A stretch of 64,000 nt of DNA. Origin: Candidatus Omnitrophota bacterium (GTDB lineage: Bacteria > Omnitrophota > Gorgyraeia > VGKN01). The stretch's first letter is position 1. The number at the start of each line of letters is the position of its first letter. Positions 5,784-53,133 of the stretch are shown one piece after another. A program made the position numbers and the translations under genes. A model generated the notes under the pieces. The model did not search any database, was not told where the DNA came from, and was given only the letters and a program-made list of their open reading frames with translations. The stretch covers positions 10,430-74,429 of the forward strand of contig JAZDNB010000035.1 of assembly GCA_043800345.1 (NCBI GenBank), written 5' to 3'.

Positions 5784-7907
5784 TCATAATTTTTCTTTTG
5801 GCGGTAAGATATGGGCAGTAACAAAGATCAAGAGGTTTTTCTTCTGTTTCTGGTCGTATGATCTGCTAAAGAGCATGGTGCCCAAAAGCGGGATGTCTCC
5901 CAGAAGAGGAACTTTATTTTTTGTTTTTGTTTGCGCCTCCTTTATAAGCCCTCCCATAACAATGGTATCACCGTTATCTACCACAAGGCTTGTGGTACAC
6001 CTTCTTGAATCAAAAAGGGGCTGTTCATAGGGTGTGGTTGTGGTACCATAATTTTTCCATTCACCTAATTCGCTGACCTCCGGGGTAAGGGTAAGATTGA
6101 TTGATTTTTTATCCTTGCCCACCGCGGGGGTAACCCTCAGTATAATGCCTACGTCTCTTGTTTTAAAATCTTCGGGTGTAGAGACTGCGTCTTTTACCTT
6201 GACCCCTGCAGCATTATATTCTGCCGCGGTAGTAGTATACTTAGTGGGATATATATATTCTCTGACTACTTTAATGACTGCTTCCTGTCCGTTAATAGTG
6301 GTAACCTTGGGCGCGGAGAGTAGATTATTTCTTGAATCACTTTCTATAGCAGCCATTACAGCCTGAAATTCGGTAAAATCAAGCATCCCGAAGGTAAAAT
6401 CGCTTGTATCGGCATATTTAAAACCTGCACCCGGGTCAGGAGGAAAGTCTTCGCTTGGTTTGCTGAGCGGTAAATAATCTCCTCCCGTGGTTGAACGTTC
6501 AAACGGCGCTGTAGTCGGCCGCGCGGCCCCGCTCACCGTTACCTGCGGGGTCCAGTTTATTCCCAGGTTTTTTAAATCTGTTACGTATATTTCTACAAAT
6601 TTTGCCTCAATCATAATTTGCATGGGAGTAACATCCAACTCATACAAAATTTTTTCTATAATCGAATGGTTTGAGGGGGTATTTCTTACAATGAGCGTTG
6701 AGGTTCTGTTGTCGAGAAATATCTTTGAACCTTCCGGCCACGTCACACAACTTAATAAAATCTCCTTTATAGTGATGGTCACCTGGCCCGATACGCCACC
6801 GGAACCTCCTACCTTCACTCCTTCAAGCGTCGGCATCATTGTTACCGGCGGCATTAAACTAGTAACCGCGGCGGTAGTAGACCCATCCTGAGTAGACGTG
6901 GTTGTAGTTGTGCTCATAAGAGGCGTTGTTGCAACACCTACTTCATTTACTTTAATCGGAGCGGAGGTCGTTACCGTATCGAAGGTAGTAAACGTAGTAA
7001 GGCTTGCCAATCCGTGCGAGAGGCGATATATCCTGGTAGTAAGGTTCTCTTTTGATAGGTTATCGGGGCTGGAAATCCATATAAGATTTTCTTCGACCCG
7101 ATATGTCAGACCCTTTGCCCGTAATACTACTTCCAATGCATCAAGAACGGTAAAATTCTTAAGATGGACCGTGACATTCATTGATGAGGGAATGGCTGTT
7201 TCATCTAACACAATGTTAATTCCGCTTAAATCGGCAAGATAAACGACTACATCCCTAATGTTTGCGCTGTCAAAATCACAGGATGCTAGCATCACACTTG
7301 CCTTTTTTTCTATCTCGGCCAGCGAAGATGTCGTCTGAGAAGCTTCGCTTGTTTCCGGCTTAAGCTCGCTTGGTTTTGTAGACCAGGCTTCTTCAATCTC
7401 TATCAACCTTTCTTTCTCGGTAAGGTCTCTCTCGGCGTTTGCCTTTAACATCGCAATGCGCATTTCGGCTTCTTTTACTTCTTTTATTAACGCCACTACT
7501 CTCGGATTATCCGGCTTGAGGGTCTGGGCTTCCCGGTATTTCTTCAGGGCTCCTTCATAATCGCCTTTTTTAAAGAGCTCCTTACCCTCATCTATTAAAA
7601 CTGCAACGGATTTTTTTGACTCATGAGCGGGAACATCCTTTGCTTCTATGCTGTAGAGAGGCCCTGGCGGAGCTTTTTGTGTTTCTTTGACAGGAGCAAC
7701 GGTTTTTTGACTTATGTCTTTACCTGTTGTTTGGCTATTCTGCGCCTCTTTAGAAATAATAATTTCCCCCGAGAACGTTTCTTCTGCCGAAAGAACAGGC
7801 AAAGAAATGCCCAAGGCTAAAACTATTATGATTATGTTAATTGGATAATAAAAAGAAGTTTGGCGTGTCAATTTTTGATGTATTGTTTGTTTTGTAAATA
7901 GTATCAT
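5784..7907 (-). CDS. Secretin (GspD/PilQ family) with N-terminal TPR-like segment and Thr-rich linker
   Basis: 707 aa. It has an N-terminal hydrophobic anchor/signal and a TPR-like segment (GDYEGALKKYREAQTLKPDNPRV). The C-terminal secretin signature is VPLLGDIPLLGTMLFS...LLIFVTAHIL. It is the last gene of the gsp-like operon. Confidence 0.85.
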   Translation of the reverse strand: MILFTKQTIHQKLTRQTSFYYPINIIIIVLALGISLPVLSAEETFSGEIIISKEAQNSQTTGKDISQKTVAPVKETQKAPPGPLYSIEAKDVPAHESKKSVAVLIDEGKELFKKGDYEGALKKYREAQTLKPDNPRVVALIKEVKEAEMRIAMLKANAERDLTEKERLIEIEEAWSTKPSELKPETSEASQTTSSLAEIEKKASVMLASCDFDSANIRDVVVYLADLSGINIVLDETAIPSSMNVTVHLKNFTVLDALEVVLRAKGLTYRVEENLIWISSPDNLSKENLTTRIYRLSHGLASLTTFTTFDTVTTSAPIKVNEVGVATTPLMSTTTTTSTQDGSTTAAVTSLMPPVTMMPTLEGVKVGGSGGVSGQVTITIKEILLSCVTWPEGSKIFLDNRTSTLIVRNTPSNHSIIEKILYELDVTPMQIMIEAKFVEIYVTDLKNLGINWTPQVTVSGAARPTTAPFERSTTGGDYLPLSKPSEDFPPDPGAGFKYADTSDFTFGMLDFTEFQAVMAAIESDSRNNLLSAPKVTTINGQEAVIKVVREYIYPTKYTTTAAEYNAAGVKVKDAVSTPEDFKTRDVGIILRVTPAVGKDKKSINLTLTPEVSELGEWKNYGTTTTPYEQPLFDSRRCTTSLVVDNGDTIVMGGLIKEAQTKTKNKVPLLGDIPLLGTMLFSRSYDQKQKKNLLIFVTAHILPPKEKL

Positions 7908-7943
7908 TATTAAAGAGTTATGTCAAGGATTTTATGTAAAAAT

Positions 7944-9176
7944 TTATTCTTTTTGTTTATACCGCAACCGCTGGCTACGCAAGTCCTTACTATTGCGCAA
8001 TTCAAGACCTTCTTTTGTAATAGATCGAACCACGATATAATCCAAAATTGTATCCCCTTCTTTAGCAAAGTATGTTTTATTTTGTAAATTTATCTGTGCA
8101 ATTAATGTTCCGTCGGGAAGCTCAATAAAACCTTTGTAGAGGGGAAGGCTTTGTTCGATTTTTGCCTTTTTTTCCTCTGCAGCTTTTTTTATCACTTCCG
8201 GCGGTTCATACTTATTAAAAATATCCCTTTGTATAAGCGCATTATAAGCTACCAACTGCTGCGGGTCGATTGTTTTTACGATTGGAGCTTGCGACTCGGC
8301 ATTTGCATTTTTCAAGACAGGCTCGAAAACCGAAATGTCCAATACCGCCGAGACTGATTTTGTATTCTCTTTCTTTTTCTCAACCGCGATATCATTAACG
8401 ATAAAAAGAGGGTTTAATTTATTTACGTCTATTAAAAAACGCATCAGGCTTGCGGTAGAACACTCACTTGCAAGTTTAAACTCAAACTCCTTTAACAGGG
8501 GGTCCTTGAAATTTTTTGATTCTATTTCTCTCGGCGCCGCTAATTCAATATTCTTTAAAGATTCCATTTTAGAGCGTATCATAAGCATTGTCAGTTCTTT
8601 TACATATGCTAACTGCGGATAAAGAATATCCAGTTCCTCTTTTTTAGGAAGTTTAGTCTCATATACCTCGAAACCGAAAGATTTATCCGAAATAAAAAAA
8701 CCCGATTTTGTTGCCTCGTTTATAATAAGCTGCTGGGTTTTATAAAATGTATCTTTAAAATTAAGCGGCTCGAAATGTTCGGTATTTGGGAAAGCCACCT
8801 GCATAAGCCCAAGCTCCGTTGACACATCTGTGTACTGGGCATTTAACTGAGCAATGTTACTATTCATCGTTTCATATATAAGCCTTGCCTCTTCCAGTTT
8901 ATTTTTTACCGCTACCATAGCAGGGGTTTTTTTGGAGACAGAACCGAGGGTAAGTTTTACATTGGCTAATTCCTGATGCGAAAGGCTGTTAGTATCAAAT
9001 GTATGCGTTGTTATTGAACGCGCCACAAAATTCAGTTTTCCGTCCCGAATGACATACGATACAACACGGTTTAAACACAATAGAGCACCCGCCAAAAAAA
9101 GCAGCATAACAACAAGGACTGTAATAAGATACGAAGGCTTCCTGCGTAATATCAATTTTATATCGGCGGTTTTCAT
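7944..9176 (-). CDS. Bitopic inner-membrane assembly protein; PilO/GspM-like domain fused to a PilP/GspC-HR-like C-terminal beta domain
   Basis: 410 aa with one N-terminal TM (YLITVLVVMLLFLAGALLCL) and a coiled-coil region. A PilO/GspM-like segment follows (EFEFKLASECSTASLMRFLIDVNKLNPLFIVNDIAV). The C-terminal YKGFIELPDGTLIAQINLQNKTYFAKEGDTILDYIVVRSI resembles PilP/GspC HR domains. The gene sits between the PilMN fusion and the secretin. Domain calls are by eye only. Confidence 0.5.
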   Translation of the reverse strand: MKTADIKLILRRKPSYLITVLVVMLLFLAGALLCLNRVVSYVIRDGKLNFVARSITTHTFDTNSLSHQELANVKLTLGSVSKKTPAMVAVKNKLEEARLIYETMNSNIAQLNAQYTDVSTELGLMQVAFPNTEHFEPLNFKDTFYKTQQLIINEATKSGFFISDKSFGFEVYETKLPKKEELDILYPQLAYVKELTMLMIRSKMESLKNIELAAPREIESKNFKDPLLKEFEFKLASECSTASLMRFLIDVNKLNPLFIVNDIAVEKKKENTKSVSAVLDISVFEPVLKNANAESQAPIVKTIDPQQLVAYNALIQRDIFNKYEPPEVIKKAAEEKKAKIEQSLPLYKGFIELPDGTLIAQINLQNKTYFAKEGDTILDYIVVRSITKEGLELRNSKDLRSQRLRYKQKE

Positions 9177-9187
9177 AGCTTGTCCGT

Positions 9188-17544: not shown

Positions 17545-19260
17545 CTACATATATACCTGCGTTTCCCTGATAACCTCTTCCGGGGTAGTAATACCTTTTA
17601 CTATCTTAAGGAGCCCGTCTTCTCTTAAAGTCCTCATCCCGCGATCCTGGGCACATTTTCTTAAAACCGCCGTCTGCACCTTCTCGGTAATAAGAGACCG
17701 TAGTTCGTCATTCAAAACAAGGAGCTCAAAAATTCCTGTCTGCCCTTTAAAACCGGTGTTGTTACAAATATTACATCCCTTCCCCCTGAAAAACTTTTTT
17801 CCCTTAAGCATCTCCTGAAATCCCAGTTCTGCAATAAGGCTGTCGGAAGGAAAATATTCTTCCTTACAGTGAGTACATATTACCCTTACAAGCCGTTGGG
17901 CTAGTATTGCCTCTAAGGTTGAATTTATCAAAAATGGTTCAATACCCATATCAATAAGTCTCGTGATTGCACCGGGGGCATCATTGGTGTGAAGCGTACT
18001 AAATACCAAATGCCCCGTAAGAGAAGCCTGAATCGATATCTGCGCTGTTTCGGGGTCTCTTATTTCACCCACCATTATGATATCAGGGTCATGGCGCAAG
18101 ATATGGCGAAGCGCTTGCGCGAAGGTGAGGTTTATCTTCGGCCTTATACCGATTTGGATAACGCCATCTACGTCGTACTCGACGGGGTCCTCTATGGTAA
18201 TGATCTTATACTCTATCTTATTTATTGCTTTTAGGGAAGAATATAACGTGGTAGTTTTTCCGCAGCCTGTGGGCCCCGTAACAAGAACTATTCCGTTAGG
18301 CTTATTAATAATATGTCTAAAAATGAGTTTTGAATCTTCCTCAAGACCCAGTTGATCAAGAGAGAGCCCGGTCAGGCCTTTATCGAGTATTCTTATTACC
18401 ACACCTTCTCCGAATACCATCGGCAGAGACGATATCCTAAGGTCTACATCCCGTGCTTCGATTTCCATCAACACTCTTCCGTCCTGGGGCAGGCGGTTCT
18501 CTGCGATATCCATATTTGCCATAACCTTAATCCTCGATATAAGCGCAAGGGTTAAACTCTTCGGCGGTTGCATAACGTCAAAGAGCACGCCATCGACTCT
18601 ATATCTGACTTTGAGCCCCTCCTCAAAAGGTTCAAAATGTATATCCGTTGCCCTGTCTTTTATAGCATTAAGGATAATAAGGTTTAACAGCTTAATGATG
18701 GGCGTCTGACTTGCCAGTTCCTGTAATTTCTCAATATCAACTACGTTTTTTATTGCCGCATTCTGGGCGTCTCCCGTAGCACTTTTTATATCTTTAAGTA
18801 TCTCTTCAAGCGATTCCTCTTTTGTTTCATAATATTTCTTGAGCGAGCGCTCAATCTGTTCTTCTGTGGCAGACACCCTCTTAATCGCTACTCCCAACAT
18901 AAAACGCAGGTCGTCGATTACGTTCACGTTAAGTGCATCCGCCATAACAACAGTGAGGGTATTGTCTTTAAATTCGATGGGCAAGATTTTGTACACTTTC
19001 GCAACTGAGGCAGGGATCATTTCGATTACATCTTTAACGATTTTTATTTCATCTAAATTGATAATTTTTATACCTGCCTGTAATCCCAATACGTCCAGGA
19101 CATTCTGCTCCTTAACGAAACCCAGTTCTATTAGGGTCCTACCGAGAGGCTTACCGCTATGTTTTTGTTCTTCAAGGGCTATTTCAAGTTGGCTTGAAGT
19201 TATGAGCCCTCTTTCAAGCAGCAGGCTGCCTAATTGAATGCGCTTTGTCGGTTTTGTCAT
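17545..19260 (-). CDS. gspE: Assembly ATPase GspE/PilB family (paralogue 1)
   Basis: 571 aa. It has an N-terminal T2SSE_N/MshEN-like repeat (QLGSLLLERGLITSSQLEIALEEQ). The Walker A is GPTGCGKTTT, with Cys at the usual Ser position. Asp and His boxes are present, as is a tetracysteine CTHC...CNIC. Confidence 0.9.
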   Translation of the reverse strand: MTKPTKRIQLGSLLLERGLITSSQLEIALEEQKHSGKPLGRTLIELGFVKEQNVLDVLGLQAGIKIINLDEIKIVKDVIEMIPASVAKVYKILPIEFKDNTLTVVMADALNVNVIDDLRFMLGVAIKRVSATEEQIERSLKKYYETKEESLEEILKDIKSATGDAQNAAIKNVVDIEKLQELASQTPIIKLLNLIILNAIKDRATDIHFEPFEEGLKVRYRVDGVLFDVMQPPKSLTLALISRIKVMANMDIAENRLPQDGRVLMEIEARDVDLRISSLPMVFGEGVVIRILDKGLTGLSLDQLGLEEDSKLIFRHIINKPNGIVLVTGPTGCGKTTTLYSSLKAINKIEYKIITIEDPVEYDVDGVIQIGIRPKINLTFAQALRHILRHDPDIIMVGEIRDPETAQISIQASLTGHLVFSTLHTNDAPGAITRLIDMGIEPFLINSTLEAILAQRLVRVICTHCKEEYFPSDSLIAELGFQEMLKGKKFFRGKGCNICNNTGFKGQTGIFELLVLNDELRSLITEKVQTAVLRKCAQDRGMRTLREDGLLKIVKGITTPEEVIRETQVYM

Positions 19261-20339
19261 TACTTATCCTTATACTCCTCTTTAAATTGAAGTCCGAAAT
19301 GTTCCGGATCAAATGCCTTCTCCAGGGCGGTTTCATACGTAATTGATCCTTTTTTGTAAAGTTCCGCAAGAAAGGCATCAAATGTTTTCATACCATACTT
19401 GCCGCCGGTTTGGATATCGGACGTAATCGAGTAGGTCTTTTTTTCCCTTATCAAGTTCTGTATTGAAGTCGTGGTAATCATAATTTCAAAACAGGCTATT
19501 CTGCTTGAGCTATCCGCTCTTACCAATAACTGCTGGCATATAATTGCAATAATAGAAGTGGATAACTGGACTCGTATCTGCTCCTGCTGGGTCACGGGGA
19601 AAACCTCAATGATCCTATCAACCGTCTTTGCCGCTGAAGTCGTATGAAGCGTTGCAAAAACCAAATGACCTGTTTCGGCCGCCAGTATAGCTGCTTCGAT
19701 GGTAGCAAGGTCGCGCATTTCCCCTACAAGGATAACGTCGGGGTTCTGCCTTAATGACCTTATGACGGCGTCAGAAAAGGAAGGCACGTCAACGCCTATT
19801 TCTCTCTGAGAGATAATACTTTTTTTGTGCGTATGATAATATTCTATCGGGTCCTCAATAGTGATAATATGGGCGGCTCGATGCACATTGATACAGTCGA
19901 TCATCGTGGCGAGCGTGGTAGTTTTACCGCACCCGGTGGGCCCGGTAACAAGAACCAACCCGCGCGGTTTATTAAGGAGGGTCTTTACTATGTCCGGGAT
20001 ACCTATATCGTCAAAGGAATAAAGCCGCGACGGTATCATCCTCAAACAAAGACTATGTACACCTTTTTGTTTAAATACGGAGACCCTGAATCTGGCAACA
20101 TCTCCGAAGGCAAGACCGAATTCTACGGTTCCGTGTTGCCTTAATTTGCCCTGATGGTCATCGGCGGTAATGGATTTCGCAAGACGTTCTGTATCAAAAG
20201 CGGTAAGCGGTTCATTGCCTACGTTTTCGATCTCTCCGTTAATCCTTAGTACAGGCGGTTTATCTACGCAAAGGTGTATATCGGACGCGTTCCTATGCAC
20301 GCACATTTCAAGAATGTGATTTATTTCGACCATGGGCAA
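19260..20339 (-). CDS. pilT: Retraction ATPase PilT
   Basis: 359 aa, with no T2SSE_N domain. The Walker A is GPTGCGKTTT. The PilT-type C-terminal motif is SIQNLIREKKTYSITSDIQTGGKYGMKTFDAFLAELYKKG. Its stop overlaps the gspE start region by 1 nt. Confidence 0.9.
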   Translation of the reverse strand: MPMVEINHILEMCVHRNASDIHLCVDKPPVLRINGEIENVGNEPLTAFDTERLAKSITADDHQGKLRQHGTVEFGLAFGDVARFRVSVFKQKGVHSLCLRMIPSRLYSFDDIGIPDIVKTLLNKPRGLVLVTGPTGCGKTTTLATMIDCINVHRAAHIITIEDPIEYYHTHKKSIISQREIGVDVPSFSDAVIRSLRQNPDVILVGEMRDLATIEAAILAAETGHLVFATLHTTSAAKTVDRIIEVFPVTQQEQIRVQLSTSIIAIICQQLLVRADSSSRIACFEIMITTTSIQNLIREKKTYSITSDIQTGGKYGMKTFDAFLAELYKKGSITYETALEKAFDPEHFGLQFKEEYKDK

Positions 20340-20360
20340 CCTCCCAATGTTAAAATTATG

Positions 20361-22040
20361 TTATACAACCACAGGTTGAGTAATGCGTATTACTTCCTGT
20401 ATAGTTGTTATGCCATTTTTTATTTTTTCTATCCCGTCCTCTCGTAGGCTCTTAAAGCCAAAATGCTGTGCTCTTTCCCGTATGATATTGCTGGGAGTTT
20501 TAGTTGTTATAAGTATCCGTATTTCATCATTAAGAACCAAAAGCTCAAAAATCCCTATTCGACCTCTGTAGCCTGTATGGTTACATTTTGCACAACCCCT
20601 TCCTCTGTAGAACATCATACCGAGAATTTCATGAGAAGATAATCCGAGTGCCGTCATTTCGTCCTTGGCGGGCTTATGCGGCTCTTTACATTCTTTACAC
20701 AATATCCTCACAAGCCGCTGGGCTAATACAGCCTGAAGCGTAGACGCTACTAAATATGGTTTTATATTCATGTCTATCAAGCGCGTTATCGCACCGGGGG
20801 CGTCATTCGTATGGAGGGTACTAAAAATCAAATGTCCCGTAAGGGCGGCCTGTATCGCAATCTGCGCCGTTTCAAAATCTCTTATTTCCCCAACCATTAA
20901 TATATCGGGCGCCTGCCGCAACATTGACCGAAGACCGCTTGCAAAAGTCAATCCTACCTGCGGTTTTATCTGAATCTGATTGATTCCCTGAAGCTGATAT
21001 TCTACCGGATCTTCAATAGTGATAAGTTTTTTGTCGGAGGTATTGATATGACTTAATGCCGCATACAGTGTGGTAGTCTTCCCGCTGCCGGTAGGCCCTG
21101 TAACCAACATAACTCCGTTAGGCAATTTTATTAAACGTTCAAATATCTCAATATTTCTTTTTGAAAAACCAAGTTCATGTATATGTAAAATTGCCCTGTC
21201 AAGAATTCTTAAGACCATGCTTTCGCCGTACAGGCTCGGCAAAACGGAAACCCTAAGATCCAATTCCCTATCTTCCACCTTTATTTTTATTCTCCCGTCC
21301 TGCGGTAAACGTTTTTCAGCGATATCCAAATTAGACATTATCTTCAACCGGCTTATGACGGTATTCTTGAGGGTTTTGGGCGGGGCTTGCACTTCGGTAA
21401 GAAGGCCGTCTATCCTATACCGTATACGAAATTTATCCTTAAACGGTTCCAGATGGATATCGGAAGCCCGGTTTCTTGCCGCTTCTTGTATGATGAGGCT
21501 CACTAATCGTACCACAGGGGCTTCATCTTCCGGGGTAAGCGTAGCCTCGGAAGATTTGGAGATTTCCGATTCATCTATCTCCTGAATTATAGTACGCAAA
21601 TCGTCCTTCTTTGAACCATAATATTTCTCAAGCGCCTCTCTGATGTCATGTTCACTAACGAGTACGAGCGACATATCCTTTTGTAAAAAAAGTTCTAAAT
21701 TTTCCTGGGCTAAAAAATTAAAAATATTGTCCGTCGCACAAATAAGCTTGCCCAACTCCAGATCCAGGGGTATCAACCTATGGCGCTTGGCAAAACTGGC
21801 AGGTATTGTATCTAATGCAGAAGGGGAGATTTCAATCTTATCTAATGTAGACGGTATAATGCCGATTTGAGAAATAAGGATTGGCCCTAAATTTTCGCTT
21901 GTAATATACCCGAGTTTTACAAAGATTTCGCTTAAGGCTAGCTGAGATTCTCTTTGCAAGGTAAGCGCCTCTTTCAGCTGCTCTTCATTTATCACGCCGA
22001 GGTTCTCGAGTGTTTCCTTAATAAGTTGCTGTCTGATCAT
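20361..22040 (-). CDS. Assembly ATPase PilB/GspE family (paralogue 2)
   Basis: 559 aa. It has a T2SSE_N-like N-terminus, Walker A GPTGSGKTTT, a tetracysteine CKEC...CAKC and the C-terminal GITTIQEVIR. Its start is 6 nt after the larC stop. Confidence 0.9.
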   Translation of the reverse strand: MIRQQLIKETLENLGVINEEQLKEALTLQRESQLALSEIFVKLGYITSENLGPILISQIGIIPSTLDKIEISPSALDTIPASFAKRHRLIPLDLELGKLICATDNIFNFLAQENLELFLQKDMSLVLVSEHDIREALEKYYGSKKDDLRTIIQEIDESEISKSSEATLTPEDEAPVVRLVSLIIQEAARNRASDIHLEPFKDKFRIRYRIDGLLTEVQAPPKTLKNTVISRLKIMSNLDIAEKRLPQDGRIKIKVEDRELDLRVSVLPSLYGESMVLRILDRAILHIHELGFSKRNIEIFERLIKLPNGVMLVTGPTGSGKTTTLYAALSHINTSDKKLITIEDPVEYQLQGINQIQIKPQVGLTFASGLRSMLRQAPDILMVGEIRDFETAQIAIQAALTGHLIFSTLHTNDAPGAITRLIDMNIKPYLVASTLQAVLAQRLVRILCKECKEPHKPAKDEMTALGLSSHEILGMMFYRGRGCAKCNHTGYRGRIGIFELLVLNDEIRILITTKTPSNIIRERAQHFGFKSLREDGIEKIKNGITTIQEVIRITQPVVV

Positions 22041-22046
22041 TGACTA

Positions 22047-23231
22047 TTATCCGTTTTTATAACAATGTGTGGCAGTTTCATAAACTTTTTTTAGAGGAAG
22101 ATGGCGACGTAAGGCAATTTTTTTACAATCTTCATACTCCGGAGAAATTGTTATGCTGCTTCCCGCGATACTGCCTATTTTTACCCGTACGCTTCCGTAA
22201 GGAGTTTTTACTTTTTTTATTTCCTTTTGAAGCTTTTTTCTTTTCACTTTAAAATATCTTACGCCAAACGTGGTAGTTTCATGAAAAATGGTTGCGATAA
22301 TTTTATCAAGGGACTTCTCCTCTGTAAGAGCAGTAAATAAATGCGCGGGGCGTGATTTTTTCATGACAATCGGGGCTATCGAAACATCCAGCGCACCCTG
22401 GGCCAATAACTTATCGATCACATATTCAAAATGCAGAGGCGGTGTATCGTCTATATTTGCCTCGATCATAAAAACATCATCGGAAAATAGGCCTTCGGAT
22501 TTTTCCGCGCCAAGCATTATTCTTAGCGTATTAGGGACATCGTCTTTTCGCACCGTAGAGCCTGCGCCATAACCTACCTTCTCTATTTCAAACTGAGGCT
22601 CCTTAAAACTGTGCACGAGAGTCTTTAGAATACTCGCACCGGTAGGGGTAACAAGTTCATGGTTGATATCCAAGAGAGAGATCGGTATACCTTGCAGCAA
22701 TTCAAGCGCTGCGGGTGCGGGAACAGGCAATACCCCGTCTTTTGTATCAACAAATCCTCTTCCCAAAACAACTCTTGAGGCATATACCTTATCTACGCGT
22801 AATGCTGTAATCAAAATTGCGGCCGAAACAATATCGGCTATTGAATCAATATCCGCAAGCTCACTGAGCATAATAGAATCAATATGTTCATTATGCACCT
22901 TTGACTCGGCCTTGAAGAGATTAAGAAATATTTCCTTTGCTAAATTTTTTGCCGGTGTAGCAAGTTTACTCTTTTCAAGGAGCATGAAAATACTTTTTTT
23001 ATCGCGAAAATTCATTTTGTTTAGTCTTGTCGAGTTTTCAACATCTACATAAAACCTGGTGCATACGACATCCCCACGTTTTACTTTTTTTCTTTTGATA
23101 GGGAAGTTACCGAGACCTAATTTTCGCAGTTCGGTTTTCAGATAATTGAGGCTTAAGCCCATATCTAAAAGGGCTCCCACTACCATATCTCCGCTAATAC
23201 CCGAGAAACAATCGAAGTAAAGAATTCTCAT
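22047..23231 (-). CDS. larC: Nickel-pincer cofactor biosynthesis protein LarC (DUF111)
   Basis: 394 aa. The N-terminus MRILYFDCFSGISGDMVVGALLDMG is the LarC/DUF111 signature. Confidence 0.85.
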   Translation of the reverse strand: MRILYFDCFSGISGDMVVGALLDMGLSLNYLKTELRKLGLGNFPIKRKKVKRGDVVCTRFYVDVENSTRLNKMNFRDKKSIFMLLEKSKLATPAKNLAKEIFLNLFKAESKVHNEHIDSIMLSELADIDSIADIVSAAILITALRVDKVYASRVVLGRGFVDTKDGVLPVPAPAALELLQGIPISLLDINHELVTPTGASILKTLVHSFKEPQFEIEKVGYGAGSTVRKDDVPNTLRIMLGAEKSEGLFSDDVFMIEANIDDTPPLHFEYVIDKLLAQGALDVSIAPIVMKKSRPAHLFTALTEEKSLDKIIATIFHETTTFGVRYFKVKRKKLQKEIKKVKTPYGSVRVKIGSIAGSSITISPEYEDCKKIALRRHLPLKKVYETATHCYKNG

Positions 23232-23264
23232 AATACCAACTTTGTTTTTATACGCACCCTATCT

Positions 23265-24017
23265 TCATCTGTTTATGAGGTCTGCAAAATAACCTGCGCC
23301 AAAACCATTGTCTATATTCACTACGACAATACCCGAGGCACAACTATTGAGCATCGTAAGAAGCGCTGCTAAACCTCTAAAACTTGCTCCATACCCTATG
23401 CTGGTAGGAACAGCAATAACCGGTTTATCGGTCAACCCCGCTACTACACTCGGAAGCGCTCCTTCCATGCCGGCAACCACGATAATGACCGAGGCGCGAT
23501 GCAACAATCTTTGTTTATCGAGAAGCCTATGAATACCCGCGACGCCTACATCATACAAGCGTTTAACCCGGTTACCCATAACCTCCAAGGTAACCGCGGC
23601 CTCTTCGGATGCCGGGATATCAGATGTCCCGCCTGTTATGATTAATACAACACCTTTCTTTTTTTTATACATTCTTCTTTGTATTTTTCTATAGGCGATT
23701 TTAGCTTCTTCATTATATAAAAGTCCCGGGATTGATTTTTTTATAGCGGAAAATGTCGCGCTTTCCAGCTTAGTTAAGAGGAGGGGCTGGGAGTTTCTGC
23801 TTAAGATACCGGCAATTTTAATAATCTGAGAAGGGGTTTTGTTTTGACAAAAAAGAACTTCCGGAAAACCCTTTCGTAACATTCTGTGGGTATCGACATT
23901 AGCAAATTTAATATTTTTATACGGCATATCTTTTAAAAAAGTGAGTATCTGCCCGGCGGATACCTTATTTTTTTTAAAATCCTTAAGCAGCTTTTCTATA
24001 ATGTTTCTTGTGCTCAT
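23265..24017 (-). CDS. larB: Nickel-pincer cofactor biosynthesis protein LarB (PurE-like)
   Basis: 250 aa. It has the PurE-like core VVLIITGGTSDIPASEEAA...VVAGMEGALPSVVAG and the C-terminal VVNIDNGFGAGYFA. Confidence 0.85.
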   Translation of the reverse strand: MSTRNIIEKLLKDFKKNKVSAGQILTFLKDMPYKNIKFANVDTHRMLRKGFPEVLFCQNKTPSQIIKIAGILSRNSQPLLLTKLESATFSAIKKSIPGLLYNEEAKIAYRKIQRRMYKKKKGVVLIITGGTSDIPASEEAAVTLEVMGNRVKRLYDVGVAGIHRLLDKQRLLHRASVIIVVAGMEGALPSVVAGLTDKPVIAVPTSIGYGASFRGLAALLTMLNSCASGIVVVNIDNGFGAGYFADLINR

Positions 24018-24019: not shown

Positions 24020-24322
24020 TTAGAATTTGAGAATGATAATAAGCATAACAATGGCGAGGATTATGGAAATAATATAGAATCCGTTAAAATAGAAAAAATC
24101 CTTTAGATGTTCGAAAAAAACATTTTTCTCATGATGGGTTAATGGCTTTGCTTTTTTGCTGAAACTCATCCTAAAATGGTCAAGATCCTCTTTTTTAAAC
24201 CGCACATAGCTTCCCCCTATTTTATACGCCGGGATCTTTCCTTTTTTTACGAGTCTTTCTAATTTCCTCTCGGAAATATGTGCGTATGCCGCAGCATCCT
24301 TTATAGTCAGTAACTTATCCAT
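24020..24322 (-). CDS. Excisionase-type HTH (HTH_17-like) protein with C-terminal transmembrane anchor
   Basis: 100 aa. The N-terminus LLTIKDAAAYAHISERKLERLVKKGKIPAYKIGGSYVRFKKEDLDHF matches the excisionase/MerR-type HTH pattern. The C-terminus FYIISIILAIVMLIIILKF is a single TM helix. Confidence 0.65.
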   Translation of the reverse strand: MDKLLTIKDAAAYAHISERKLERLVKKGKIPAYKIGGSYVRFKKEDLDHFRMSFSKKAKPLTHHEKNVFFEHLKDFFYFNGFYIISIILAIVMLIIILKF

Positions 24323-24388: not shown

Positions 24389-24946
24389 CTACCGTAGAAT
24401 ATTATCCTCTACCCAGTCGTCTATATCCTGCTTTCTAAACTTTATAACCCCTCCTTCGCTACTACAGGGTATCTTTCCGGAATTAATCCATTCGAGTATC
24501 TTAGAGGCATCAACCTCTAAATAATGCGATACCTCTTCGATGGTAAGAAATTGCGAAGAAGTTTCGCGCCTGTTGCTACTTTCTGGAAGTTCATTCTGTT
24601 CTTTTTCTTTTATCATTTCGCACGTACCGTTAAACAGGGCGCCTTCCTCAACAATAATGGACCGTGCAATAATATGGCCGTCCACCCGTGAGGTTTTCGC
24701 TAGTTTCACCTCTTTAGAGGCCATCAACTCTCCGGAGAATGTACCAAATATGATAACGGAATCGCCTTCGACAGTCGCACAAACCACTGCATCCTCCCCA
24801 ATAACAAGAATCCCTTTTGTCGACAGGCTTCCTTCGAATTCCCCGTTAATCCGCAACTTTACCGGGTTTTTAAATTCAAGGGTTCCCTTCATCCCGGCTT
24901 CTATCTCAAGATAATCATCACGCCCGCGAGAACGTTTCTTAAACAT
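24389..24946 (-). CDS. Bactofilin-domain protein fused to C-terminal excisionase-type HTH
   Basis: 185 aa. Residues ~20-110 show the bactofilin beta-helix repeat pattern (GTLEFKNPVKLRINGEFEGSLSTKGILVIGEDAVVCATVEGDSVIIFGTFSGEL...). After a charged linker the C-terminus is FLTIEEVSHYLEVDASKILEWINSGKIPCSSEGGVIKFRKQDIDDW. Confidence 0.65.
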   Translation of the reverse strand: MFKKRSRGRDDYLEIEAGMKGTLEFKNPVKLRINGEFEGSLSTKGILVIGEDAVVCATVEGDSVIIFGTFSGELMASKEVKLAKTSRVDGHIIARSIIVEEGALFNGTCEMIKEKEQNELPESSNRRETSSQFLTIEEVSHYLEVDASKILEWINSGKIPCSSEGGVIKFRKQDIDDWVEDNILR

Positions 24947-32628: not shown

Positions 32629-33642
32629 TCACCTATTGTCTGTCGAATCCCTAATGATCAGTTGTGGGTTAAATAATTTCCTTACAACCAAGCGGGATGT
32701 TTTTTGAAAGGAGATAAGTTCAATTAACCGCAGACAGGCCTGATAAGCTATCTCACCTATAGGCTGATATACCGTGGTCAAAGGCGGGTCAATGTGTTCA
32801 CAGAGCGGATGATTATCATACCCCACGAGCGCAATGTGGGAGGGGATTTTCTTTTTGCTTCTTTTTATTGCCTGTATGGCACCGATGGCCATTTTATCAT
32901 TTGCCGCAAAAATAGCATCCGGAGGGATCTTAAGTGAGAGTAATTTTTCCGTGGCAACCCGACCCTTGTTGCAATCAAAATATCCGAATTGCACATATTT
33001 TTTCCTAAAGGGTATGTGAGCCTCGGCTAATGCCCGTTTATAGCCTTTAAATCTATCATCGGCATTTATCCAATTTTTATGGCCGTGGATAAATGCGATT
33101 CTTTTTCTGCCGTGAGCTATCAAATATGCGGTTGCCGCATATCCCCCCTTTATGTTATCCGTATCAAATGAATTAAACCCTCTGTATGAAGCATTGATAA
33201 GAACGAGCGGTATGCGGTTAGACTTCATTTTATATAGTTCGGGGTAATCGTCTTGAGCACTGGCGGTAATAAGTAATCCTGCAACCAGTCTGCTCTTATA
33301 TAATTTTAAACATTCATCATTATTGTATCTTTCCTGCGCAAACAACATAAGTTGATAACCTTTTTCTTTTACTGCTCGCTCAACCCCCCGGAGCACCTCC
33401 TGGATATAAAATTCCGGTTCTCCCCCAAAGGCACCGCGGGGAAACAATAAACCGATTACATTCGTCCTCTTTGAGGCTAGTACCGAAGCATAAAAATTAG
33501 GGGTATAATTATTTTTTTTTAGACATAAAAGAATCCTCTTGCGCACGGCGGAAGAAACATATCCTTCATTTTTTATTGCTCGCGAGAGTGTCCGGCGGGA
33601 TAAACGTAGTTTCCTTGCAATTTTTTCCAGTGATAACTTCAT
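32629..33642 (-). CDS. LacI-family transcriptional regulator
   Basis: 337 aa. It has an N-terminal HTH (LEKIARKLRLSRRTLSRAIKN) and a periplasmic-binding-protein-like sugar-binding core (VIGLLFP..., VGYDN). It starts 20 nt after the upstream glycosidase-like gene. Confidence 0.85.
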   Translation of the reverse strand: MKLSLEKIARKLRLSRRTLSRAIKNEGYVSSAVRKRILLCLKKNNYTPNFYASVLASKRTNVIGLLFPRGAFGGEPEFYIQEVLRGVERAVKEKGYQLMLFAQERYNNDECLKLYKSRLVAGLLITASAQDDYPELYKMKSNRIPLVLINASYRGFNSFDTDNIKGGYAATAYLIAHGRKRIAFIHGHKNWINADDRFKGYKRALAEAHIPFRKKYVQFGYFDCNKGRVATEKLLSLKIPPDAIFAANDKMAIGAIQAIKRSKKKIPSHIALVGYDNHPLCEHIDPPLTTVYQPIGEIAYQACLRLIELISFQKTSRLVVRKLFNPQLIIRDSTDNR

Positions 33643-33661: not shown

Positions 33662-36600
33662 TTAATCTTCGGTTACACTGATAGAGTTCCGATAAGGTAA
33701 ACTTCTGAATTCTATCGGTTTCTTACCGGCCTTTTTAAAAGGTATTGTAACTACAAAACCGTCGGGCGGGGTGGCATCTCCCTCTATATTAAGAAGAAGT
33801 TTCCTGTTACGATAACTAATGCTATAACTGATAGTCCCATAATAGGTGGGCAAATTTTTGACCGAGACTTCTTCCCCTCCCTCTAACCATGATGTACTTA
33901 TCCCGTCTGCTAAAATCAGTTTTCCTTCTTTTTCATATACAAAAAGATTTCTTACTGCGGTTATGTATTCCGCTCCGATCCACGTATGGGGCATATCGCC
34001 AACATATTGGCCCAACCTGTAATCACTTATCACGACTTCTGCCCAATGATTCCAACTGCGCGGGCGCATTACGGTGAGGAAGTACCGCAACATCTCCAGG
34101 GCCCTCTCTTTTTGTCCCATCATGAGGAATGCATTAACCGATCTGATCTCGTAAGGAGTAAACGAGCCTTTCCAGTTTTTATTAGACCTCGGAAGAAACG
34201 TTTCAGAGTAGTATTTCTCGAATGTATTACTTATCTGTGGTTTTGGCAAATTCTGGTATTCATCGCAGGGAAATATCGCGATTGCGGTTGAGGTTGGGTC
34301 AAAATCTCCTTTTTCGGCACACCCGGGAATATACCCGATGTGTTTTACTTGCATAACGAGGTTTAATGAATCATATAAACTCTTTTTGAAATCGGCCATC
34401 TCGGTTTTTATCCACTGTAAAGCATTATCCTTTCCCAGTAAAGTTGCAATCGCCTCTGCATCTTTCCACCCCTTCAAGACCCAAAAATCGTCCCAATAAC
34501 TATGCTGCGGGGGAAAATACCCCTCATGACTATTGGACTGCGGAAGTATTCCATAAAAAATCTTCTTTTCTGGTGGGCCGTTTTTAAATTCATCCGATAA
34601 TCTTTGCTTTCTTATCTCAATAAGAAATTGCAAGGCTTTTTCTATATATGGAAATTTTTCTGACAGAAATACCTTATCTTTTGTAAACTTATAGTATTCT
34701 GACAACGCATAAATAAATTCGCCTTGCGAATCATATTCCTTCCAATCTTTGCACCATACGGGCATACCTTCTTTTTCCAATATAAATGGGATCATACCGT
34801 TTGCGTATTGGAGGCGTGATACTAACTCCAAAAAATTTTTTACTTCCTTCTGATGTCCCATTCTCAAAAGTGCCGCCCCGATAACCGCTCCATCGCGCAT
34901 CCATCCGCGCTTATAATTTCTTGAGCCCGGCTGAATCATTTCACCGTCGTTGTTTATGAGTATATAGGCCAAGTTGGCCTTAAGGGTATTTATTATTTCC
35001 GTCTCCGGAATATTAATCTGGACCTTGCTTAGTTTTTCCTCCCAGTAGTCCCTGGTTTTAGCAATGAGATCGTTGAAATATGCAGGCAAGTTTTCGTTTG
35101 CAGAAAGATCAAGTTGGATCTCACCGTGGAGCGGAATAACGTAAAAAAAGTCCATTGCTGGCAGTCCCCGCGGCGGGAGGGTAAAATTATACTCCAGCGC
35201 CCCTGAGGCATATCCCGCTTCGTCATTCACTATTGCATTTTTGGGAAGCTTCCCTTCTCTGATAACATTTATAATATCCCCTTCTGCAAAGGTAACCGCA
35301 CCAAAATTATCGGGTTTTGAGAGCGGTTGCATAAGTATCGTTTTGTTTGCCTTAACGACAGCACCGTCATACTCAAGAGAGCGCAGTTCTGTTAAACCCC
35401 CGAAATGCCAGGGGGGATTCACCTGAAACGGTCTTATGGTCAAATAAAGTTTACCTTTTACCTGTTTTTGAGAGGTATTCTCCAATGTATACCATACAAA
35501 CGTACTGGACTTTCCTCTCTCGCCATATGCACATAACTTCTGAGTGAGCCGTATTCCGTTATATTGCCACGTCACCGTAGGAATAGGAAGGTAACCGTTT
35601 TCCAGAGACTGTGTCACCTTAGAATTCATGGCGGTAATAAATTTACCGTCTATGTACAAATACGGCATTAAAGAACAACTTTTACTATAGGGTTCAATGG
35701 TCCCGTCTTCGCATAAAAGACTTTCTCGCTCATCGCCGTCAACGCCTACCACTGTCCAATAGGCCTGCTTCCTATACACCCATTTCGGAAAATACCCCGC
35801 AGGGGATTCTTCCGCTAACACCTCGTAATATTTTTGAGGGGAGGCAGATTCATCCTGCCCCTTGAGGGTTATCTCTTTGACGCAGTAACGGGAGCCTGAG
35901 GATTGCCTGCAGATTATCTTTAAAAAGCGCACCCTGGTTACCGGAACGTAAAGCAGATCCTTTGCGCCATTACCGTCCTTCTTGGAGTACATTGATTTCC
36001 ACATGATATTATCTAAAGAACCATATACCTCATATGATGTTGCATGGGTGCTTCCCCAATTTATCTGGATACCGCCTATATCCTTCTCTTTTCTTAGGTC
36101 AATCAAAATCCATTCCTCGTTACCTCCGGTACTTATCCACGCGGTATTCATATTACCGTCCATGACAGGCTCGGCATCTTTATGTTTCCGACTTGAAGAT
36201 ACGGTTATAGCAGGTTGTTCATCCGCTCCTTTTACCTTAATTTCCCATAAGGAATACCCCCAGGCGGTTGAGCGTTTTTTACATAAAATTTTAATGTACC
36301 GAACGGTCGACTTTTTAAAATAAATATCATCCGTCTTCCCGTCGCTATCATCTGTTGCGTATACAGTTTTAAACGTACGTGCGTCATTCGATAACAAAAT
36401 TTCATACGACTGGGCAAAAGCCTGTTCCCAATGTAACGTTAGGCCCGATATCGCGCTGGGGCTTCCCAAATCAAGCAGCACCCATTGAGGATCCGAAAAC
36501 TCACTTGACCACCGGGTATTTATCTTATCGTCAATCAAATAGTCGGAGTGATACGAATCATTTTCCAGGGAAGATACGGAAACTCTTATTGCGGTTGCAA

Positions 36601-36727
36601 GGCCGGGAAATGATAAAAGGAAAGTTGCTAGCAAAACTAAATGGAACACCCCACGGGCAAGCCCGTGGTACCTAAATTTACCCCGACTCGTAAGATATGC
36701 AGAAATTCTCTTCGATAATTTCTGCAT
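33662..36727 (-). CDS. Secreted protein with two F5/8 type C (discoidin) domains and a C-terminal six-hairpin (GH15-like) glycosidase-like domain
   Basis: The probable start is ATG 36727, giving MQKLSKRISAYLTSRGKFRYHGLARGVFHLVLLATFLLSFPGLATA (signal peptide). The track ORF extends to GTG 36871. Discoidin patterns are IDDKINTRWSS...WVLLDLG and MDGNMNTAWIS...WILIDL. The (alpha/alpha)6-like region is NYKRGWMRDGAVIGAALLRMG. Confidence 0.6.
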   Translation of the reverse strand: MQKLSKRISAYLTSRGKFRYHGLARGVFHLVLLATFLLSFPGLATAIRVSVSSLENDSYHSDYLIDDKINTRWSSEFSDPQWVLLDLGSPSAISGLTLHWEQAFAQSYEILLSNDARTFKTVYATDDSDGKTDDIYFKKSTVRYIKILCKKRSTAWGYSLWEIKVKGADEQPAITVSSSRKHKDAEPVMDGNMNTAWISTGGNEEWILIDLRKEKDIGGIQINWGSTHATSYEVYGSLDNIMWKSMYSKKDGNGAKDLLYVPVTRVRFLKIICRQSSGSRYCVKEITLKGQDESASPQKYYEVLAEESPAGYFPKWVYRKQAYWTVVGVDGDERESLLCEDGTIEPYSKSCSLMPYLYIDGKFITAMNSKVTQSLENGYLPIPTVTWQYNGIRLTQKLCAYGERGKSSTFVWYTLENTSQKQVKGKLYLTIRPFQVNPPWHFGGLTELRSLEYDGAVVKANKTILMQPLSKPDNFGAVTFAEGDIINVIREGKLPKNAIVNDEAGYASGALEYNFTLPPRGLPAMDFFYVIPLHGEIQLDLSANENLPAYFNDLIAKTRDYWEEKLSKVQINIPETEIINTLKANLAYILINNDGEMIQPGSRNYKRGWMRDGAVIGAALLRMGHQKEVKNFLELVSRLQYANGMIPFILEKEGMPVWCKDWKEYDSQGEFIYALSEYYKFTKDKVFLSEKFPYIEKALQFLIEIRKQRLSDEFKNGPPEKKIFYGILPQSNSHEGYFPPQHSYWDDFWVLKGWKDAEAIATLLGKDNALQWIKTEMADFKKSLYDSLNLVMQVKHIGYIPGCAEKGDFDPTSTAIAIFPCDEYQNLPKPQISNTFEKYYSETFLPRSNKNWKGSFTPYEIRSVNAFLMMGQKERALEMLRYFLTVMRPRSWNHWAEVVISDYRLGQYVGDMPHTWIGAEYITAVRNLFVYEKEGKLILADGISTSWLEGGEEVSVKNLPTYYGTISYSISYRNRKLLLNIEGDATPPDGFVVTIPFKKAGKKPIEFRSLPYRNSISVTED

Positions 36728-36810
36728 ACTCGTAGGGGTTATCCCCCTACTTTGTGAACAGCTTGCCCATTTAGTGACATCCCCCGAAGCAGTTTTTTCT
36801 TCGCATTCAT

Positions 36811-36828
36811 CCGCGTGCATGCACGCGG
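36811..36828. promoter_or_regulatory. Perfect 18-bp palindrome CCGCGTGCATGCACGCGG in the 5' leader of the glycosidase-like gene (candidate auxiliary operator or RNA hairpin)
   Basis: Read directly from the sequence. It is GC-rich in an AT-rich context and lies about 45 nt downstream of the predicted TSS. Confidence 0.4.
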
Positions 36829-36864
36829 TCTTCTGCGAAGGGGGATAAAATATGCGTATTTTTG

Positions 36865-36878
36865 TGCCCACGTGGGCA
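36865..36878. promoter_or_regulatory. Perfect 14-bp palindrome TGCCCACGTGGGCA abutting the -10 box (candidate LacI-family operator)
   Basis: Read directly from the sequence. It has the central CG typical of LacI-family operators and covers the predicted transcription start. Confidence 0.45.
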
Positions 36879-52797: not shown

Positions 52798-53133
52798 TTA
52801 AAGGCCGTGGTTCTTTGCGGTAGAGGGAACTTCTTCTATAGTCTTTAGTGCTATACCGCGGGGTAGCCCGGCTTCAAATCTTTGTTTAAAATCATCCAAA
52901 GGCATAGGGGCAGAAAGCACGATAGTCACATATTCACTTTCAGATTCGTTGCCTAATTTCAAGGCACGCTTGAAGAAGATTAACGGATGGGGGCTAAATC
53001 CTTCCGATAACTTAAACGGTATGGACCCGCGCCGCAATGCCCTTTCAAAAAGCCTAAGTAAGTCAAGGTGGGAAATAAATTTAATCCATGACTGTTTAGC
53101 AAATTCTATTTTTATTCTGTAGGTATTGTTCAT
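52798..53133 (-). CDS. Radical SAM-associated protein, DUF2344/TIGR03936-like, short (111 aa)
   Basis: YRIKIEFAKQSWIKFISHLDLLRLFERALRRGSIPFKLSEGFSPHP matches the DUF2344 N-terminal signature. It is only about half the length I recall for the family. Its start ATG overlaps the pilQ stop (ATGA). Confidence 0.7.
   Translation of the reverse strand: MNNTYRIKIEFAKQSWIKFISHLDLLRLFERALRRGSIPFKLSEGFSPHPLIFFKRALKLGNESESEYVTIVLSAPMPLDDFKQRFEAGLPRGIALKTIEEVPSTAKNHGL

Follow-up and report, generated by a model that had tools for sequence, protein, structure and literature searches.

The 64-kb window analysed here (64,000 nucleotides of contig JAZDNB010000035.1 from a Candidatus Omnitrophota bacterium) carries, at positions 5784-22040, 13 consecutive open reading frames (ORFs) on the minus strand: pilB1, pilT, pilB2, pilC, five pilin genes (G, H, I, J and K), a gene for a secreted protein, pilMN, a gene for an Amuc_1100-family protein and a secretin gene. 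All were present in the ORF list of the window at the coordinates reported earlier. We consider it probable that this string, hereafter system 1, is the complete gene set of a type IV filament machine of the type found in the Planctomycetes-Verrucomicrobia-Chlamydiae (PVC) superphylum, the filament most likely being retracted by PilT. Machines of this kind are conserved throughout the PVC superphylum, and the locus represents their Omnitrophota form; the Akkermansia cluster Amuc_1098-1102 belongs to the same family. A sequence-only reading of this DNA had described the locus as a hybrid of type II secretion system (T2SS) and type IV pilus parts. The mixture itself is genuine, with GspG-K-type pilins on the one side and PilT and a PilM-PilN fusion on the other; nevertheless, it is not a one-off hybrid, and only the pilins truly resemble their T2SS counterparts.

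We fetched 80 related loci (labelled L###) and mapped the window proteins onto them. The string pilB1-pilT-pilB2-pilC-(pilins)-pilMN-Amuc_1100-like-secretin-polA-glgA was found in L002, L008, L010, L013 and L014, and L027 and L077 carry the same order from pilT onward, so that the gene order recurs in seven other Omnitrophota loci, all from metagenome-assembled genomes, with the pilT orthologue in the same position in each. G/H/I/J pilins also lie between pilC and pilMN in L008, and the Omnitrophota clusters continue into polA-glgA-coaE as the window does (coaE at 884-1489). The order of pilMN, the Amuc_1100-like gene, the next gene and the secretin gene is widespread among the 80 loci, the secretin gene lying downstream of pilMN in 65 of the 80 PVC loci. 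In five Verrucomicrobiia loci (L021, L025, L028, L035 and L076), a pilC-pilB2-pilT block convergently adjoins the cluster. These genes thus form a machine that is typical of the lineage and do not stand together by chance. Moreover, pilT belongs to this machine, as its synteny is conserved and it overlaps pilB2 by 1 nucleotide (nt); its distance from pilB1 is 21 nt. The retractable filament suggested from the sequence is still the most likely reading.

Apart from the PilO/PilP-like fusion, the identities assigned to the 13 tightly packed genes in the sequence-only reading were borne out by Pfam and NCBIfam. The intergenic distances range from -1 to +76 nt except between I and J, where an overlap of 50 nt appeared as an artefact of the ORF caller, which takes the first possible start. 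The co-directionality of the genes, also pointed out earlier, carries no weight, because every sizeable gene of the window is on the minus strand. Likewise, scans for consensus promoters and terminators across the window performed no better than on shuffled sequence and are thus uninformative on operon boundaries; the scan gave no minus-strand terminator within an intergenic gap. The names given to the operon proteins by NCBI are mixed (GspE, GspE, GspF family, GspG, GspH/FimT, PilM and Amuc_1100 family).

The kinship with Akkermansia is seen in the alignment complex and the secretin. Both clusters encode a homologous Amuc_1101-family PilM-like fused protein, an Amuc_1100-family protein and a secretin with a TPR module, in the order PilM-like, Amuc_1100, next gene and secretin, and they share a downstream neighbourhood that includes coaE. 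The PilM-PilN fusion of the window bears the INLLP motif in the context RITINLLPPEE and matched PilM_2 (159 bits) and PilN (44 bits) in Pfam, in agreement with the earlier identification of a PilM/N-type protein; the Amuc_1101 family (NF045709) aligned at 293 bits over 475 positions, the equivalog cutoff being 650. Its homologues were detected in Omnitrophota, Auribacterota, Kiritimatiellia, Lentisphaerae and Verrucomicrobiota, and many, including those in Akkermansiaceae, are named 'Amuc_1101 family PilM-like pilus complex protein'. The AlphaFold2 model of the fusion (pLDDT 83.5) comprises an actin-like domain, a helix of ~100 residues, which is likely to be a transmembrane segment plus coiled coil, and an alpha-beta domain. 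The best fold matches of the model were PilM proteins of type IVa pili (T4aP) from P. aeruginosa, Thermus (2ych, TM 0.85) and Myxococcus, and no GspL was found among the top 50. The possibility that the fusion is a GspL-like protein was therefore rejected on fold. The C-terminus matched (hhalign 90%) the PilN of a second pilus locus in the same window (53130-63130, minus strand; hereafter system 2).

The next product, of 410 amino acids (aa), had been read as a PilO/PilP-like fusion. It is indeed a fusion, since relatives encode two genes (~250 and ~230 aa) in its place; nevertheless, the family proved to be Amuc_1100 joined to the product of the gene that follows in relatives, and the PilP part of the claim was not confirmed. 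The family assignment draws on a precomputed match to PF28028 and on the NCBI name 'Amuc_1100 family', the direct NCBIfam score being 34 bits. The profile of the Omnitrophota family matched the Amuc_1100 crystal structures 6lad and 6kny with E = 1e-20, and the next matches, in the same region and non-significant (E ~0.1), were PilO of Myxococcus (3jc8_O) and of Pseudomonas (2rjz). Five proteins matched when the family profile was searched against a set of 5.8 billion proteins. For the family of the C-terminal half, a profile search of solved structures returned no relative, and an AlphaFold2 model of the whole protein from a four-sequence alignment (pLDDT 40) was not used for fold search. From its position and a beta-rich motif, the C-terminal beta domain may be PilP-like. 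A literature search for work linking Amuc_1100 with PilO gave false matches only.

In the secretin, Pfam detected Secretin (144 bits), STN (30 bits) and TPR_11 (30 bits). Among NCBIfam models, the Amuc_1098 family (NF042912) scored 231 bits (cutoff 750), GspD 201 bits (cutoff 351) and PilQ 194 bits (cutoff 284), and thus the protein showed no preference between PilQ and GspD. In L005, L007 and L008 the secretin content is split into a TPR/STN gene and two short secretin paralogues, which suggests either a two-paralogue secretin or that the window gene is a fusion. In these loci (L005:8158-11463, L007:13074-16440 and L008:13141-16693), the TPR/STN gene matches residues 104-311 of the window secretin, and the two short paralogues, of ~370 aa each, match residues ~378-701.

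The motor block consists of PilT, two assembly ATPases and the platform protein. PilT, recognised earlier together with a second PilB, was confirmed (TIGR01420) and carries IQNLIRE, comparable to AIRNLIRE of PilT. The product of pilB1 possesses Walker A (GPTGSGKT) and a tetracysteine motif, and both assembly ATPases matched T2SSE at 460 bits and MshEN (61 bits in pilB1, 63 bits in pilB2) in Pfam; the cyclic di-GMP (c-di-GMP) motif NF053729 scored 40.4 bits in pilB1 and 65 bits in pilB2 (cutoff 38). Among solved structures, the best match of pilB1 was Geobacter PilB (498 bits), V. vulnificus GspE scoring 438 bits; the corresponding values for pilB2 were 518 bits (Geobacter PilB), 495 bits (Myxococcus PilB) and 445 bits (V. 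vulnificus GspE). The matches to T4aP PilB run over the full length, MshEN N-domain included. EtpE, the GspE of plasmid pO157, scored 630 bits against V. vulnificus GspE and 399-404 bits against pilB1 and pilB2, about the value it reached against Myxococcus PilB (~400 bits), while true GspE proteins score 565-630 bits among themselves.

We also built a neighbour-joining (NJ) tree of the ATPases (389 columns, 100 bootstraps, few references, four of which were transcribed by hand from HMMER alignments). In this tree, pilB1, pilB2 and their PVC orthologues form a clade of their own (93% bootstrap), and the three GspE references (V. vulnificus, E. coli and EtpE) form a separate clade (100%) without pilB1 or pilB2. 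The two ATPases are therefore outside this small, three-reference T2SS GspE clade. Within the PVC clade, the pilB2 clade is common to Omnitrophota and Verrucomicrobiia (100%), and pilB1 is an Omnitrophota-only paralogue clade (100%). The platform protein scored 414 bits with GspF (cutoff 424) and 383 and 381 bits with PilC models in NCBIfam; it matched the N. gonorrhoeae platform homologue at 240 bits, E. coli GspF at 226 bits and EtpF at 220 bits. On these scores it is equidistant from GspF and PilC.

The pilins, by contrast, are T2SS-like. The C-terminus of G, DPWGN...GAGDDINNW, is the calcium-site signature of GspG, as the sequence-only reading had recognised, and an end-to-end alignment with EpsG (3gn9, 42 bits), including both DPWGN and DDINNW, corroborates it. 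All matches of the globular domain among solved structures were GspG, and, when G was tested as a T4a-type major pilin, beyond the N-terminal helix it resembled GspG structures only. G matched T2SSG (64 bits) and N_methyl in Pfam and TIGR01710 at 72.7 bits, below the cutoff of 88.85; its NCBI name is GspG. H matched GspH (26 bits) and N_methyl in Pfam, and Verru_Chthon cassette protein D (33 bits) and GspH (28 bits) in NCBIfam. For I, N_methyl was found in Pfam, and GspI (34 bits), PilV (34 bits) and Verru_Chthon cassette protein B (27 bits) in NCBIfam. Family support for J is weak (T2SSJ, E = 0.008 in Pfam; gspJ, E = 7e-4 in NCBIfam), and homologues hold the same position in L005, L007, L008, L009 and L068. 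The true start of J appears to be downstream of that of the longest ORF, its exact site being uncertain, because the class III signal begins only at residue 103 and the nearest upstream canonical start, ATG49, still leaves a leader of 54 residues; J may use a non-canonical start or an unusually long leader. GspH, GspI and GspK were thus detected as minor pseudopilins, and GspJ weakly. This feature is non-discriminating, as an H-I-J-K minor-pilin set is common to T2SSs and T4aP (FimU/PilV/PilW/PilX).

K lacks Glu5, as GspK does, while the four other pilins have class III signals with Glu5. It scored 80 bits with T2SS_GspK (NF037980) and 62 bits with HHH_3. We considered whether the HHH_3 match represents an added ComEA-like DNA-binding domain, and rejected this, because the alpha-domain that is intrinsic to E. 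coli GspK aligns with this region: the family N-terminus (230 residues in K) matched E. coli GspK with an hhalign probability of 96.4% over 208 columns, helix-hairpin-helix (HhH) region included. The remaining C-terminal extension (~480 aa) belongs to no known family and is probably a tip adhesin or binding module. The long form of K recurs in 84 cluster representatives at E <= 1e-30, mostly of ~650-960 aa. The Verru_Chthon cassette (TIGR02596/02598/02600) resembles these pilins in that its proteins D, B and A are the second-best or comparable NCBIfam matches of H, I and K, and its protein A is, like K, very long with a GspK-like N-terminus (~1300 aa versus 714 aa in K). Nevertheless, the scores (27-35 bits) are far below the cutoffs, and the cassette has been described without an associated machine.

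In most PVC loci the slot before pilMN is that of Amuc_1102: by a hidden Markov model (HMM) search, at least 60 of the 80 loci have an Amuc_1102 (MUL2A) homologue as the gene immediately upstream. In the window, the slot lies between K and pilMN and is held by an unrelated secreted protein. Its sole family match was NF047433 (Lepto_7_Nterm, 41.7 bits against a cutoff of 43) over residues 6-61, no Pfam family matched the 291-aa protein, and the C-terminus is helical and, judged by eye, TPR-like. The proteins in this slot of the window, L003 (L003:2995), L005 (L005:3864), L007 (L007:8675) and L068 (L068:8422) share the N-domain only. Their C-termini are unrelated and by eye look helical/TPR-like (window and L007), beta-helix-like (L003 and L005) or glycoside-hydrolase-like (L068). 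The protein in the slot of L009 is beta-helix-like, and its N-domain is absent. The machine may handle the slot proteins as cargo or use them as adaptors.

Table 1. Genes of the two filament loci in the 64-kb window; positions are those of the window.
Gene or product	Position	Strand	Length (aa)	Description
System 1				
pilB1	20361-22040	-	559	PilB/GspE-type hexameric assembly ATPase; MshEN N-domain
pilT	19260-20339	-	359	Retraction ATPase; TIGR01420 PilT/PilU family, 446.5 bits (cutoff 319)
pilB2	17545-19260	-	571	Second PilB/GspE-type assembly ATPase; MshEN
pilC/gspF	16218-17468	-	416	Inner-membrane platform; Pfam T2SSF 230 bits, two repeats
G	15751-16188	-	145	GspG-family major pilin; class III signal KSA/FTLIELIVV
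H	15223-15720	-	165	GspH/FimT-type minor pilin; signal KKG/FTILE
I	14764-15192	-	142	GspI/PilV-type minor pilin; signal TG/FTLIE
J	13857-14813	-	318 (longest ORF)	GspJ-like minor pilin; signal RKG/LSFIE at residue 103
K	11710-13854	-	714	GspK-family minor pilin; HhH alpha-domain; signal RKG/IALIL
Secreted accessory protein	10833-11708	-	291	Signal peptide; small N-terminal beta domain (ADIIYLKNGGKVEGKII...)
PilM-PilN fusion (pilMN)	9188-10804	-	538	Actin-like PilM domain, INLLP motif, PilN-type alpha-beta periplasmic domain
Amuc_1100-family (PilO-like) protein	7944-9176	-	410	Fused to the gene that follows in relatives
Secretin	5784-7907	-	707	Outer-membrane secretin with N-terminal TPR and STN module
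System 2				
Stand-alone MshEN protein	62684-63130	-	148	c-di-GMP motif 64 bits (cutoff 38)
PilB-type ATPase	60824-62545	-		
PilB-type ATPase	59095-60801	-		
PilC	57857-59074	-		
Pilin	57259-57693	-	144	PilA-like, two Cys
PilM	56162-57190	-		
PilN	55517-56155	-		
PilO	54948-55520	-		
PilP-like protein	54568-54951	-		
PilQ	53130-54596	-		

The Akkermansia genes Amuc_1098-1102 constitute a type IV pili cluster, the secretin of which was localised to the outer membrane (PMC4960237, PMC10688800). Four of them, Amuc_1099-1102, correspond to MUL2, reported to be needed for mucin uptake or intracellular accumulation of mucin products (PMC13174399, PMC12418764), and a type IV-like pilus has been proposed for glycan attachment across Akkermansiaceae (PMC12418764, PMC13174399). 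This literature deals with an alignment and secretin module and takes Amuc_1102 as the pilin, the motors being apparently unnamed. In Omnitrophota, Seymour et al. found T4aP in nearly all members, expressed in V. archaeovorus and tied to host-cell attachment (PMC10066038). The sequence-only reading had proposed system 1 as an undescribed system. This is too strong a claim: T4aP were already on record for nearly all Omnitrophota, curated NCBIfam and Pfam models exist for the PilM-like, Amuc_1100 and secretin families, and the Akkermansia cluster has been published. The paper on the type IV filament superfamily makes no mention of Verrucomicrobia, Planctomycetes or PVC, so that no ready classification was available (PMC6668835).

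System 1 differs from the Akkermansia cluster in several respects. It lacks an Amuc_1102/MUL2A homologue, its scores fall well short of the equivalog cutoffs (650, 180 and 750 bits for Amuc_1101, Amuc_1100 and Amuc_1098, respectively), Amuc_1100 and the next gene are fused, and the organism belongs to a different phylum (Omnitrophota). Two PilB, PilT, PilC and five pilins, without which the Akkermansia cluster has been described, are encoded in the same string. Compared with T4aP of Myxococcus, Geobacter or Thermus, system 1 shares the pilB-pilT-...-pilC motor block, the PilM fold, a PilN domain with INLLP, a secretin and four priming minor pilins homologous to GspH-K. Unlike those T4aP, however, it has a GspG-family major pilin, PilM and PilN in one polypeptide, a very divergent Amuc_1100 family replacing PilO, two PilB paralogues, a secretin with a TPR module and ATPases in a separate clade; no PilY1 is encoded in the locus, and K carries an extension of 480 aa. 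With the Vibrio mannose-sensitive haemagglutinin (MSHA) pilus (MshE/MshL), an assembly ATPase with a c-di-GMP-binding MshEN domain is the only shared feature. An MSH subtype can be set aside, as the secretin matched MshL (TIGR02519) at 145 bits (cutoff 250), lower than GspD and PilQ, and no other Msh-specific family matched any of the 13 proteins in Pfam or NCBIfam.

Putting the parts together, system 1 most likely makes a filament that responds to c-di-GMP, is retracted by PilT and serves in attachment or capture. The pilins would be processed by a prepilin peptidase encoded elsewhere, and the GspH/I/J/K-like minor pilins would form a priming tip complex, in which the large C-terminal module of K probably binds the target. 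Below the tip, the GspG-family pilin would polymerise on the PilC platform, driven by PilB1 and PilB2, the MshEN domains of which probably couple extension to c-di-GMP. The growing filament is predicted to cross the alignment complex of PilM-PilN and the PilO-like Amuc_1100 protein, with the C-terminal domain fused to the latter, and to exit through the TPR-STN secretin, and PilT would depolymerise it, giving rise to cycles of extension and retraction. The filament would probably serve to attach the cell to a surface, particle, polymer or host cell and to pull on it. Between host-cell attachment, suggested by the work on Omnitrophota, and polymer capture or uptake, suggested by the work on Akkermansia, our analysis would favour neither.

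Several observations weigh against the proposed retractile machine. The HMM built from Amuc_1102-like ORFs found no such ORF in the window or in the closest Omnitrophota relatives, and no ORF of the window matched Peptidase_A24, the prepilin peptidase. The PilO assignment of the 410-aa protein is weak (hhalign 69% against the PilO of system 2), and hhalign was negative for a likeness of its C-terminal half to PilP or GspC. Both ATPases are barely above the cutoff of the GspE model TIGR02533 (630.6 bits for pilB1 and 632.4 bits for pilB2; cutoff 630.25) and, at ~610 bits (609.9 for pilB1), below the equivalog cutoff of 675 of the PilB model TIGR02538. The earlier proposal to place the ATPases by phylogeny succeeded as far as separating them from the GspE clade; the PVC clade grouped with T2SS and Thermus PilF at 25% bootstrap, too low to fix its deep position. 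In the systems studied so far, the filament formed by GspG-type pseudopilins is short and stays in the periplasm instead of emerging as a surface pilus. System 2 lacks a PilT of its own, and PilT may act partly or mainly there. Finally, the filament, its retraction and its function are predicted from genes, both here and in close whole-operon homologues.

It is attractive to speculate that this filament of GspG-type pilin works in the direction opposite to that of a T2SS: it would extend through the secretin, the K tip module or an adaptor encoded in the operon would bind an external polymer, particle or host-cell component, and retraction powered by PilT would reel this cargo to, or into, the periplasm. 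We hold this version tentatively and regard it as unlikely.

It is quite improbable, in our estimate, that system 1 instead performs type II-like secretion, in which a short GspG pseudopilus pushes folded exoproteins through the secretin and PilT resets the piston. In this case, the variable secreted protein from the slot between K and pilMN could be among the substrates; such a protein encoded in the operon, with counterparts in relatives that look beta-helix- or glycoside-hydrolase-like, recalls T2SS operons, which often adjoin genes for their substrates, as stcE beside etp on pO157. System 1 also shares with classical T2SSs (Gsp/Etp, e.g., etpC-O of pO157) the E-F-G-H-I-J-K order, a secretin, a bona fide GspG-family major pseudopilin with the calcium-site C-terminus, GspH-K-like minor subunits and a GspK-type subunit without Glu5, and both ATPases are just over the GspE equivalog cutoff. 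Nevertheless, GspC, GspL, GspM, GspO and a pilotin are absent from the locus. T2SSC, T2SSL and T2SSM matched none of the 13 proteins in Pfam or NCBIfam, and phmmer found nothing between these proteins and EtpC, EtpL or EtpM, the hhalign probabilities being <=3%. The alignment proteins are of PilM-PilN type, the PilM domain has the fold of T4aP PilM, and the ATPases fall outside the three-reference GspE clade and reach ~400 bits with EtpE, as against 565-630 bits among true GspE proteins. The 'classical T2SS' core of the sequence-only reading was consequently not supported, with the ATPases in a separate PVC clade, an equidistant platform, a PilM fold and no GspC, GspL or GspM. To our knowledge, PilT is unknown in T2SSs, yet it is present and syntenically conserved here. 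Finally, the homologous Akkermansia module has been tied to uptake or attachment, not to export (PMC13174399).

System 2 is a second complete, canonical-looking T4aP locus, in which the PilM-to-PilQ genes are tightly packed (gaps of +6 to -29 nt) and two PilB paralogues are present as in system 1; neither PilT nor minor pilins were found in the locus. A gene for a stand-alone MshEN protein, which may be a free c-di-GMP sensor or regulator, lies just upstream of its PilB genes. Omnitrophota T4aP loci have been reported to lie beside a non-respiratory F-type ATPase (PMC10066038); the ORFs of the window that were screened included no such ATPase. System 2 encodes two PilB, PilC, a Cys-containing pilin and PilM to PilQ without a PilT, and one could suppose that pilT, perhaps together with pilB1, mainly serves system 2, the GspG-type machine then being non-retracting. 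There is a precedent in the Vibrio MSHA pilus, which is retracted by a PilT that is encoded elsewhere and shared between pilus systems. We consider such an arrangement very improbable, however, as (i) pilT shares 1 nt with pilB2 and is separated from pilB1 by 21 nt, (ii) the linkage of pilT-pilB2-pilC to pilMN and the secretin gene is kept in seven Omnitrophota and five Verrucomicrobiia loci, and (iii) in L002, L010 and L013, which have system-2-like pilMN/pilO nearby, pilT stays in the system-1 string. PilT may serve both machines, and its conserved position argues that system 1 is at least one of its clients.

Least likely of all, and hardly probable in our view, is an evolutionary intermediate near the base of the T2SSs, i.e., a T4aP-like ancestor with GspG-type pilins and a covalent, GspL-like PilM-PilN that has kept PilT. 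All four core parts of system 1 do lean to T2SS profiles relative to system 2: the GspE minus PilB score is ~20 bits in system 1 versus -40 and -14 bits in system 2, the GspF minus PilC score is 31 bits versus 0, the secretin scores GspD >= PilQ in system 1 and PilQ > GspD in system 2, and the pilin is of GspG type in the former and of PilA type in the latter. Additionally, the domains of PilM-PilN follow one another as in GspL, and the NJ tree puts the PVC clade with T2SS and Thermus PilF; but that grouping has 25% bootstrap support from few references and a distance method, the PilM domain is structurally PilM, not GspL, and the fusion could be convergent.

Some neighbouring features of the window deserve a brief description. 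Directly upstream of pilB1, with a gap of 6 nt, are larC (nickel insertion protein) and a gene for a LarB-like AIR carboxylase (22047-24017). The larC-pilB1 adjacency is probably incidental, because triose-phosphate isomerase, not larC, is the upstream neighbour of pilB1 in the relative L002. At 24389-24946, a 185-aa protein combines a bactofilin domain with a C-terminal HTH_17 DNA-binding domain, an unusual domain combination; the gene is followed by one for a separate 100-aa HTH_17 protein (24020-24322). A 1069-aa protein with two F5/8 type C (discoidin, galactose-binding) domains (33662-36871), which adjoins a LacI-family regulator (32629-33642), may be a secreted or surface glycan-binding protein. 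GC skew is negative over the whole window (1-64000), the cumulative skew dropping steadily to -3.16. The gene coaE lies near type IV pilus genes in the window (secretin-polA-glgA-coaE), in Verrucomicrobia (secretin-coaE-rho) and in E. coli K-12, where it is ~1.3 kb from hofC with guaC between them; this linkage, seen outside the window at L086:1600-2220 and L001:17010-17627, spans very distant phyla.

What is new here is a consolidated Omnitrophota version of the PVC pilus machine, with T2SS-type pilins, PilT, duplicated PilB, two fusions and no Amuc_1102. The operon physically joins homologues of the Akkermansia MUL2 module to two PilB-type ATPases, PilT, PilC and GspG/H/I/J/K pilins, and leads to the prediction that this machine serves PVC bacteria to build a retractile filament of GspG type. 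If system 1 is merely a divergent T4aP, the value of the finding lies in better annotation of an operon that NCBI labels part T2SS and part type IV pilus. If, on the other hand, the uptake version holds true, the operon would identify the missing motors and pilins of MUL2-dependent mucin uptake in Akkermansia, and likewise of 'selfish' polymer uptake in PVC bacteria, and GspG-type pseudopili could be dynamic surface pili. The combination of T2SS-type pilins, a retained PilT and a covalent PilM-PilN bears on the divergence of T2SSs and T4aP. For the ultra-small, possibly host-dependent Omnitrophota, system 1 offers a concrete candidate for their attachment apparatus.

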